Origin: a virus
Lineage: Duplodnaviria > Heunggongvirae > Uroviricota > Caudoviricetes
IMG/VR virus record: IMGVR_UViG_2740892233_000002
Length of the DNA stretch: 10,190 nucleotides
Strand: one strand, 5' to 3'
In this document: piece by piece, positions 3,424-4,026 of the stretch
Layout of the letters: each line of letters starts with the position of its first letter
Position numbering within the stretch: position 1 is the stretch's first letter
Program-made: the position numbers and the translations under genes
The notes under the pieces: generated by a model
Told to the model about the DNA's origin: nothing
Databases searched by the model: none
What the model saw: the letters and a program-made list of their open reading frames with translations, nothing else

Positions 3424-4026
3424 TCATGGCATGGCCATGAGCATTTTCACGTCCGCATCACCGTCTGCTGACGTCTGTGGCACGCCACCCTGTACCGCTG
3501 CCGGTGAATGGTTCGCCATGATGCGTTCAAACATGGCGGTTGTGGATGCAGAGACCGGTTCTGCCTTACCTGATCCCGCAGCCAGCACAGCCCGGGCGCT
3601 CTCCACAGTCATTCCCGGGCAGGCAGCCAGCTGTTCAGCCTGCGCCTCAGCCCCTTTTGCCTCATCCAGTGCCATGATCTGATCACGGAGTGAGGGTCCG
3701 GCATCCGCCTGCGGTGAAGCAGCCAGGATCGGGCGGGCTTTTTCCACCGTCATCTCCGGCATCGCCGCCAGCGTTGCCGCCAGTTGTTCACGACCTTTCG
3801 CTTCTTCACACGCCATAATGCGATCGGCTTCACTCTGCGCGGATGCCACCGGCTGCTGTGGTGCCGCCGCGGCCAGAATCGCCCGGGCCTGTTCAACGCT
3901 CATGCCCTGTTGTCCTGCCAGCATCGTGGCAAGCTGTTCACGTCCTTTCGCTTCCTGGCATGTCAGGATCCCCATCACTCGCTGGTTCTCCTGCGCGGCG
4001 GCTTCCGTTGCAGTTAATTGCGGCAT
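3424..4026 (-). CDS. Nu3: Candidate nested scaffolding protein Nu3-like (200 aa), in frame within the 3' part of C
   Basis: Internal ATG at 4024..4026 preceded by a strong Shine-Dalgarno (minus-strand cagaggaggcactATG). Corresponds to the position where lambda Nu3 (131 aa, same frame as C) starts in my recalled alignment (GGRMTKETQ vs GGTMPQLTA). Confidence 0.55.
   Translation of the reverse strand: MPQLTATEAAAQENQRVMGILTCQEAKGREQLATMLAGQQGMSVEQARAILAAAAPQQPVASAQSEADRIMACEEAKGREQLAATLAAMPEMTVEKARPILAASPQADAGPSLRDQIMALDEAKGAEAQAEQLAACPGMTVESARAVLAAGSGKAEPVSASTTAMFERIMANHSPAAVQGGVPQTSADGDADVKMLMAMP

Follow-up and report, generated by a model that had tools for sequence, protein, structure and literature searches.

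In bacteriophage lambda (NC_001416), gene C (4418..5737) encodes an S49 protease with a C-terminal scaffold region, and within this region an internal Shine-Dalgarno (SD) sequence and ATG provide the start of the scaffold protein Nu3 in the same frame. In phage 21, the corresponding genes are gene 5 and the nested gene 6. The GenBank record M81255.1 ('Bacteriophage 21 head gene operon'), which we take to be that of Smith and Feiss (Gene, 1993), lists gene 5 and gene 6 with its ribosome-binding site (RBS). Within gene 6 it also marks 'Tri1 box', 'Tri box', and 'Tri3 box' as repeat_region features, with the note 'function unknown; putative'. In the complete genome OL657228.1 (2022), the same two coding sequences (CDSs) are named 'capsid protease/scaffolding protein' and 'scaffolding protein' (PMC9119081). 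In this work, a stretch of 10,190 nucleotides from a virus (Caudoviricetes; IMG/VR record IMGVR_UViG_2740892233_000002), hereafter the window, was analysed with regard to its homologue of these genes, which holds three copies of a unit of about 45 residues. The window very probably carries the head-gene block of a phage-21-type lambdoid prophage of Escherichia coli, in which the repeats are the known 'Tri box' triplication of gene 5/6 (the lambda C/Nu3 homologue) and the units would act as multivalent modules for scaffolding or protease targeting.

Gene 5, its repeat units and the nested scaffold gene

The translated open reading frame (ORF) of 501 aa matched PHROG 53 'head maturation protease' from end to end (E = 2e-228). 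Its amino acid (aa) identity with phage 21 gp5 was 98.4%, with seven substitutions and no insertions or deletions (indels), and the residues of the window at the substituted positions are S38, A364, A373, K378, R469, I470, and P484. In a tblastn search against phage records, 98.4–98.6% identity over all 501 residues was found to phages 21, ev017, PhiR57_1 and others, and seventeen further close phage records were collinear with 89–98% identity. Because the genes are collinear without indels, the features of M81255.1 map base for base onto the window. Thus 'Tri1 box' (5542–5645) corresponds to 3959–3856, 'Tri box' (5682–5792) to 3819–3709, and 'Tri3 box' (5823–5936) to 3678–3565, and the ATG of phage 21 gene 6 is position 4026. 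Phage 21 and the window have in common the length of 501 aa, the nested ATG with its RBS, the three repeat regions, and the flanking portal, shp, and major capsid genes, and the two copies of gene 5 differ by point substitutions only. The Tri triplication and the nested gene are not new, since both are already annotated in type phage 21, although a preliminary description of the window, made from its letters alone, had implied novelty.

The units (Table 1) lie in tandem in the C-terminal third of the ORF and are diverged. They are joined by short linkers rich in Pro, Ala, Gln, and Ser, and unit 3 is followed by a variable tail of 45 residues. Local alignment with BLOSUM62 gave scores of 87–106 between units, compared with 26–28 ± 5 in shuffled sequences (z = 11–16), and none of the 2,000 shuffles reached the observed values. 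Pairs of units share 21–24 identical residues over 36–45 aligned columns, and 17 of about 43 columns are invariant across all three. The conserved Nu3 motif ER.RI..IL.C.EAKGRE.LA..LA..PGMTVE.A..ILAAAP is present three times in the protein. Unit 3 is the most diverged, and its EAKGRE loop is changed to EAKGAE in the phage 21 lineage. In the DNA, identity between the unit cores reaches only 56–65%, so the array is visible at the protein level only: Tandem Repeats Finder detected no array at the locus, and a search for short DNA repeats returned only families of 12–15 nt there, with a spacing of 141–156 nt. A fourth, partial unit proposed by eye (aa 466–501, 'FERIMANH') was rejected, its similarity to the other units being at z about 0. 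The preliminary description had recognised three diverged tandem copies, which is borne out by the pairwise scores, and had placed them at 3573–4026, a correct range, with the nested ATG at one end and the final core codon of unit 3 at the other. It also had each copy beginning with Met. There is indeed one conserved Met per unit (R-[VI]-M), but it sits about five residues inside the unit and not at its start.

One frame is predicted to give two products, namely the 501-aa S49 protease with its scaffold tail and the 200-aa scaffold alone, which would start from the SD sequence and ATG at 4026. The sequence AGGAGG at 4031–4036 precedes this ATG, and its anti-SD pairing of −12.0 kcal/mol was the best among the 45 in-frame ATG, GTG, and TTG codons of the gene; the C gene's own start reached −9.1 kcal/mol. 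The lengths of 501 and about 200 aa and the strong SD sequence that had been proposed at first were thus recovered by the ORF list and the SD scan. The predicted scaffold is acidic, with a charge of −9 at pH 7.

If the conserved Met of each unit were an extra internal start, a nested series of shorter scaffold proteins would result. Each unit does contain an in-frame ATG, at aa 319, 372, and 419, respectively, and for the first of these the anti-SD pairing is moderate (−7.4 kcal/mol), but the GGAG involved begins about 16 nt upstream of the ATG, and the ATGs of units 2 and 3 are essentially without an SD sequence (−2.4 and +0.5 kcal/mol). Moreover, the position is often occupied by Leu in homologues (SILALDEA, RILALDEA). 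Such a series is contradicted by the SD scan and is very improbable. The Met residues of the motif are instead read as probable positions of the hydrophobic core and not as conserved start codons, because homologues often carry Leu there. In OL657228.1, two 'CII binding sites' are marked inside gene 6 (2409–2422 and 2643–2656). They are matches to the pattern ttgynnnnnnttgy only and correspond to about 4021–4008 and 3787–3774 of the window, on the strand opposite the gene, with one of them within Tri unit 2.

The lambda C gene has the same position in the head operon as the window gene, and their products are about 54% identical over aa 3–344. Lambda gpC contains exactly one copy of the unit, whereas the window has three. 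The lambda motif, ENSRIMGILNCEEAHGREEQARVLAETPGMTVKTARRILAAAP, is shared with the window gene and groups with its unit 1; both the single copy and this motif had been given accurately in the preliminary description, as checked against NC_001416. The expected lengthening relative to lambda was also found, with a C product of 501 aa in the window vs. 439 aa in lambda and a Nu3 product of 200 aa (20.5 kDa) vs. 131 aa (13.4 kDa). The leader before the first unit is a low-complexity stretch of 46 residues in lambda and only 10 residues in the window, so that the window scaffold, with two more units and 36 fewer leader residues, is about 70 residues longer. The lambda length of 131 aa was counted from the ATG at 5342, which follows AGGAGG and is homologous to the ATG of phage 21 gene 6. 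In RefSeq, on the other hand, the lambda nu3 CDS is given as 5132..5737 (201 aa) from an ATG without an SD sequence. The two scaffolds appear equal in length (201 vs. 200 aa) because of this start at 5132, which looks like a legacy annotation.

Distribution and origin of the repeat unit

A profile built from the three units and run against 1.84 billion cluster representatives matched 486 proteins at E ≤ 1e-3. With a profile rebuilt from these matches, exactly one unit was found in 50 of the 52 representatives counted as full-length (at least 380 aa), at a distance of 37–76 residues from the C-terminus. The family consensus of the unit is ER.RI..IL.C.EAKGRE.LA..LA..PGMTVE.AK.ILAAAPK. When ten single-unit representatives were scanned with Pfam, the S49 domain was detected in nine. 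The tenth representative, and four of the nine with the domain, proved to be fused to other lambda-type head or tail proteins (Nu1, portal, terminase, tape measure, or tail L), and these chimeras were discounted; the one-unit count still stands with the lambda-derived chimeras set aside. The norm of the S49 protease-scaffold family is thus one unit, and an enterobacterial clade that comprises phage 21, Gifsy, and prophage relatives has the triplication as a derived state.

In the tree of units, unit 1 of every multi-unit protein fell together with the units of two single-unit proteins, that of lambda and a lambda-like one. Furthermore, a three-residue 'MGI' insertion is common to unit 1 and the unit of lambda. 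The unit 2 sequences of E. coli and of Salmonella also grouped by position, and those of unit 3 did so only weakly. From this grouping, units 2 and 3 count as the additions, and the triplication probably predates the split of the E. coli-21 and Salmonella-Gifsy lineages. Gifsy-1 STM2605, a lambda gpC homologue, and related Salmonella S49 peptidases have three units in the same order as the window. The Gifsy-1 protein is collinear with that of the window, with 63% identity over the full length, and has the same GGTMP context at the nested start. Its unit 3 keeps the canonical EAKGRE, whereas the phage 21 lineage has EAKGAE, and its C-terminal tail is different from that of the window and longer.

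Among 5,426 complete E. coli genomes, the 677-nt Nu3/scaffold region was found at 2,922 sites in 1,870 genomes (about a third), nearly always at full length. A 61-nt probe that covers the latter half of unit 2 was present at 2,839 of the 2,922 sites (1,804 genomes), and therefore about 97% of the E. coli sites keep three complete units. By these sequence counts, three units are the standard state of a very common prophage lineage. The preliminary description had considered that three copies might be the common state of the family. This holds for the close lineage, where the three-unit form was found in 19 of 19 close phage records, in Gifsy-1, and at most E. coli sites, but not for the wider family with its single unit. 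The feature itself adds nothing new, and the allele is among the commonest E. coli prophage genes.

Length classes were drawn from 120 close cluster representatives. The full-length protein was used for this homologue search; the 200-aa scaffold as a query gave mostly gene fragments. The common form, of 501 aa and slightly shorter, has three units. In proteins of 482 aa (e.g., P0129, on at least 1,000 contigs), unit 2 has an internal deletion of 19 residues, and 24 representatives of 451–452 aa carry two units, the junction being a Tri1/Tri2 hybrid. For the two-unit allele P0180, at least 24 contigs were counted; it lies in some cases beside portal, decoration, and full-length capsid genes and in others in rearranged prophages. 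Four units are present in a distinct E. coli lineage (P0028, 47% identity); its units 2–4 are 80–88% alike, and to judge by this likeness its array is a separate, more recent amplification.

Several longer proteins were set aside. The 551-aa 'four-unit' allele (P0093, P0094) is an assembly artefact, because its extra unit repeats 150 nt exactly, with single Ns at the borders, and a second 150-nt duplication is present in the terminase gene of the same assembly (692 vs. 642 aa). In that assembly (GCA_900537015.1, LS992828.1), the two exact 150-nt tandem duplications fall in 6001–7656 and 2154–4232, and at least one is bounded by single Ns; one gives the spurious fourth Tri unit of the 551-aa P0093 and the other the 692-aa terminase A. 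The length of 150 nt suggests an artefact related to read length that was propagated into protein databases. A lone 657-aa allele with a large internal duplication (P0092) raised the same concern and was left out, and proteins of 577 and 721 aa are tail-fibre-like fusions in rearranged prophages and not repeat variants.

Gene context and state of the prophage

In the head region, every long ORF is on the minus strand, and the genes follow the lambda order (terminase, W, portal, C, shp/D, major capsid), which is also the gene order of phage 21, and the DNA identity to phage 21 is 91–96% (Table 1). The C-type gene is located between the portal gene (B) and the decoration (D/shp) and major capsid (E) genes, collinear with phage 21. 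The Ser and Lys positions of the protease were located, and Ser162 of the 501-aa protein aligns with Ser166 of lambda gpC, which reportedly has a catalytic role according to work of Medina and colleagues from 2010.

Table 1. Features of the window, with the proportion of non-synonymous differences (pN) from Gifsy-1 where it was calculated; AF2, AlphaFold2.
Feature	Position	Strand	pN	Basis
Small terminase subunit gene, Nu1-like	9311..8598	minus		ORF list
Large terminase subunit gene	8626..6701	minus		ORF list
W-like gene	6714..6508	minus		ORF list
Portal gene, 530 aa	6511..4919	minus		ORF list
Gene 5 / lambda C homologue, prohead protease with C-terminal scaffold region, GTG start, 501 aa	4929..3424	minus		ORF, phage 21 gp5 identity, PHROG 53
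S49 (SppA/ClpP-like) serine peptidase domain, aa 146–293	4051..4494	minus	0.17	Pfam PF01343, E = 3.7e-35
SD sequence GAGGAGG of the nested gene	4031..4037	minus		Read directly; best anti-SD duplex; RBS annotation in M81255.1 and OL657228.1
Nested in-frame gene 6 / Nu3 homologue (predicted scaffold), 200 aa, 20.5 kDa, pI 4.65	3424..4026	minus		'gp6' / 'scaffolding protein' CDS at the homologous phage 21 ATG
Tri unit 1, aa 314–359, ENQRVMGILTCQEAKGREQLATMLAGQQGMSVEQARAILAAAAPQQ	3853..3990	minus	0.14	Translation, pairwise alignment, GenBank 'Tri1 box'
Tri unit 2, aa 367–409, EADRIMACEEAKGREQLAATLAAMPEMTVEKARPILAASPQAD	3703..3831	minus	0.20	Translation, pairwise alignment, GenBank 'Tri box'
Tri unit 3, aa 414–456, LRDQIMALDEAKGAEAQAEQLAACPGMTVESARAVLAAGSGKA	3562..3690	minus	0.27	Translation, pairwise alignment, GenBank 'Tri3 box'
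Inter-unit linker			0.49	
C-terminal tail, aa 457–501, fast-evolving, two short predicted helices	3427..3561	minus	0.52	z about 0 vs. units, pN, AF2
Decoration (D/shp) gene, 115 aa	3387..3040	minus		ORF list
Major capsid gene	2982..2098	minus		ORF list
Head-completion and tail genes	left of major capsid gene			ORF list

Unlike phage 21, the window prophage has a nonsense codon in the large terminase gene, and its capsid gene has lost 48 codons. In the terminase gene, codon 570 (window 6917–6919) is TGA, compared with TGG (Trp) in phage 21. Because of this premature stop, the 642-aa product, which in other respects is 92% identical to phage 21 gpA, lacks its final 72 residues. The prophage therefore probably cannot package DNA, unless the stop is a sequencing error. 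The deletion in the major capsid gene is in frame (144 nt, window about 2225–2233), shortens the product to 294 aa vs. 342 aa in phage 21 gp7, and has a short 'VVA' repeat on either side. The missing 144 nt are present in all of the best-matching complete E. coli genomes (two-piece matches spanning 345 nt), so the deletion is either private to this sequence or an assembly error.

Four runs of exactly 10 N (131–140, 662–671, 9101–9110, and 9526–9535) represent scaffold gaps or masking, and thus the window is probably derived from a draft assembly. Across the run at 9101–9110, the Nu1-type small terminase gene has a 204-nt tandem duplication (8911–9305, 92% match), which results in a 237-aa ORF with a repeated QTEVARHLSLTDRQLRRLQKLPGAP... 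segment. This looks like a scaffolding or assembly artefact in which overlapping contig ends were joined with Ns. A match to the cos region of phage 21 (bases 1–67) occurs twice, at 9459–9506 and 9606–9672, flanking the last N run. The window is also mosaic with respect to phage 21 (147–879 and 8545–9311). The portal-to-capsid block is 96% identical to phage 21 at the DNA level and the Z/U tail-gene region only 79–86%, and the small terminase gene together with the first ~80 nt of the large terminase gene has no DNA match to phage 21. The Nu1-type gene shows 99% aa identity to that of another E. coli prophage (GCA_900537015.1, LS992828.1).

Constraint, predicted structure and possible role of the units

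In the comparison with Gifsy-1, the proportion of synonymous differences (pS) was about 0.7 throughout, i.e., synonymous sites were saturated. By pN, purifying selection maintains all three units about as strongly as it does the protease domain, with unit 3 the loosest (Table 1). The C-terminal tail has 29% aa identity to that of Gifsy-1.

A single unit, modelled by AF2 from 21 aligned units, was predicted to be a small compact three-helix module with helices at residues 4–10, 18–25, and 32–41 (predicted local distance difference test, pLDDT, 88.2; predicted template modelling score, pTM, 0.63). In the model of the whole 200-aa scaffold (pLDDT 62, pTM 0.25), each unit again has three short helices, and the linkers are of low confidence. 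The low pTM and the low-confidence linkers suggest modules on flexible linkers with no fixed mutual arrangement. Helices were also predicted in the tail at Nu3 residues 160–173 and 191–196, with low confidence. Foldseek returned no matches to the whole-scaffold model, and a sequence search of PDB gave nothing relevant (best E = 1.1, a ribosomal protein). Since fold searches with the single-unit model found generic three-helix bundles only, no functional inference was drawn from them.

In Pfam, no family covers the unit, and there was a sub-threshold match to PF00633 (HHH) on unit 3 alone (13–15 bits vs. a cut-off of 24). This match would be expected if the units were helix-hairpin-helix (HhH) DNA-binding motifs that tether the scaffold or the protease to DNA. 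However, it is below the Pfam threshold and in one of three units, the best RuvA match is to domain III and not to the HhH domain, the protein is acidic (pI 4.65, charge −9 at pH 7), and scaffolds exit the procapsid before or as DNA enters. A role in DNA binding is thus scarcely credible.

We hypothesize that each unit is a small three-helix protein-binding module in which the EAKGRE loop is the most conserved part. The units would be the points at which the scaffold contacts the major capsid protein and/or other scaffold chains, and the same modules on the C-terminus of the protease would allow the protease to be co-assembled into the procapsid. With three units the scaffold would be multivalent, with higher avidity or cross-linking per chain, and this multivalency may compensate for a leader much shorter than that of lambda (10 vs. 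46 residues before the first unit). After assembly, the scaffold would be degraded by the protease, as in lambda.

For lambda, interactions of Nu3 with E (by yeast two-hybrid), with Nu3 itself, with C, and with B have been reported (PMC3224144). By analogy, these interactions would fit a binding module, but they do not map to the unit. The Nu3–Nu3 interaction, for which dimerisation was also reported (PMC3224144), would equally be accounted for if the units were mainly modules of scaffold self-association and the capsid were bound by the C-terminal tail, so that triplication shifts the oligomer state and not the capsid valency. The window scaffold does have a C-terminal tail with two short predicted helices, and in other phages the extreme C-terminus of the scaffold binds the capsid, as is reported for the helix-turn-helix of P22. 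Nevertheless, conservation is lowest in the tail (pN = 0.52 and 29% aa identity vs. Gifsy-1), and the unit is the only scaffold segment that is conserved family-wide. Since the capsid protein is well conserved, an element that binds it should be conserved as well. Self-association as the main function is therefore rather unlikely, though still deserving attention.

Lambda C is reported to degrade Nu3 before DNA packaging (PMC3224144, table 2), and the preliminary description had speculated that the expansion could change scaffold stoichiometry or processing. Accordingly, the units could be recognition or cleavage cassettes for the S49 protease, with more units providing more sites and faster or fuller removal of the scaffold. 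No cleavage-site motif is known or detectable in the window units, and the conservation of the whole 40-residue helical module exceeds what a cleavage site needs. Moreover, the linkers, where proteases usually cut, are the variable parts. We consider a cassette function improbable.

Some observations weigh against the role of the units as multivalent scaffold and protease-targeting modules. The GenBank label of the Tri boxes is still 'function unknown; putative'. Many prophages retain two-unit alleles, or alleles in which unit 2 is truncated, so a full set of three is perhaps not a strict requirement. In addition, the prophage of the window looks defective, and this copy of the gene may not be in current use. 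Finally, lambda gpNu3 is said to be intrinsically disordered, to go by the title of a 2011 paper of Medina and colleagues, which is hard to reconcile with a unit that is confidently predicted to be folded. Folding of the unit may thus occur only on binding.

As a working model for the Tri unit as a binding module, the C-terminal helix-turn-helix of P22 gp8 can be used, which is reported to be a small helical module of an otherwise flexible scaffold that makes the essential contact with the coat protein. It is a functional analogue only, with no sequence or detectable fold relationship. The P22 gp8 domain is a single-copy two-helix hairpin without a fused protease, and its scaffold is recycled and not degraded. 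The Tri unit, in contrast, has three predicted helices, is acidic, and is repeated.

It is conceivable, though we hold it only tentatively, that the Tri unit is an autonomously folding three-helix binding module in a scaffold that for lambda is described as intrinsically disordered, and that its copy number is a natural 'valency dial' that sets how many capsid subunits or scaffold partners are bound per chain. Most of the family would have the dial at one, some E. coli prophage alleles at two, phage 21 and Gifsy at three, and P0028 at four. The unit is the sole scaffold element conserved across several hundred protease-scaffold clusters, with one to four natural copies. It is therefore a small, defined target for the question of how lambda-type scaffolds and their fused proteases recognise the procapsid, which is much less understood than in P22, HK97, and phi29. 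If copy number does set valency, the natural two-, three-, and four-unit alleles would be a ready series in which scaffold valency can be related to procapsid assembly and protease loading.

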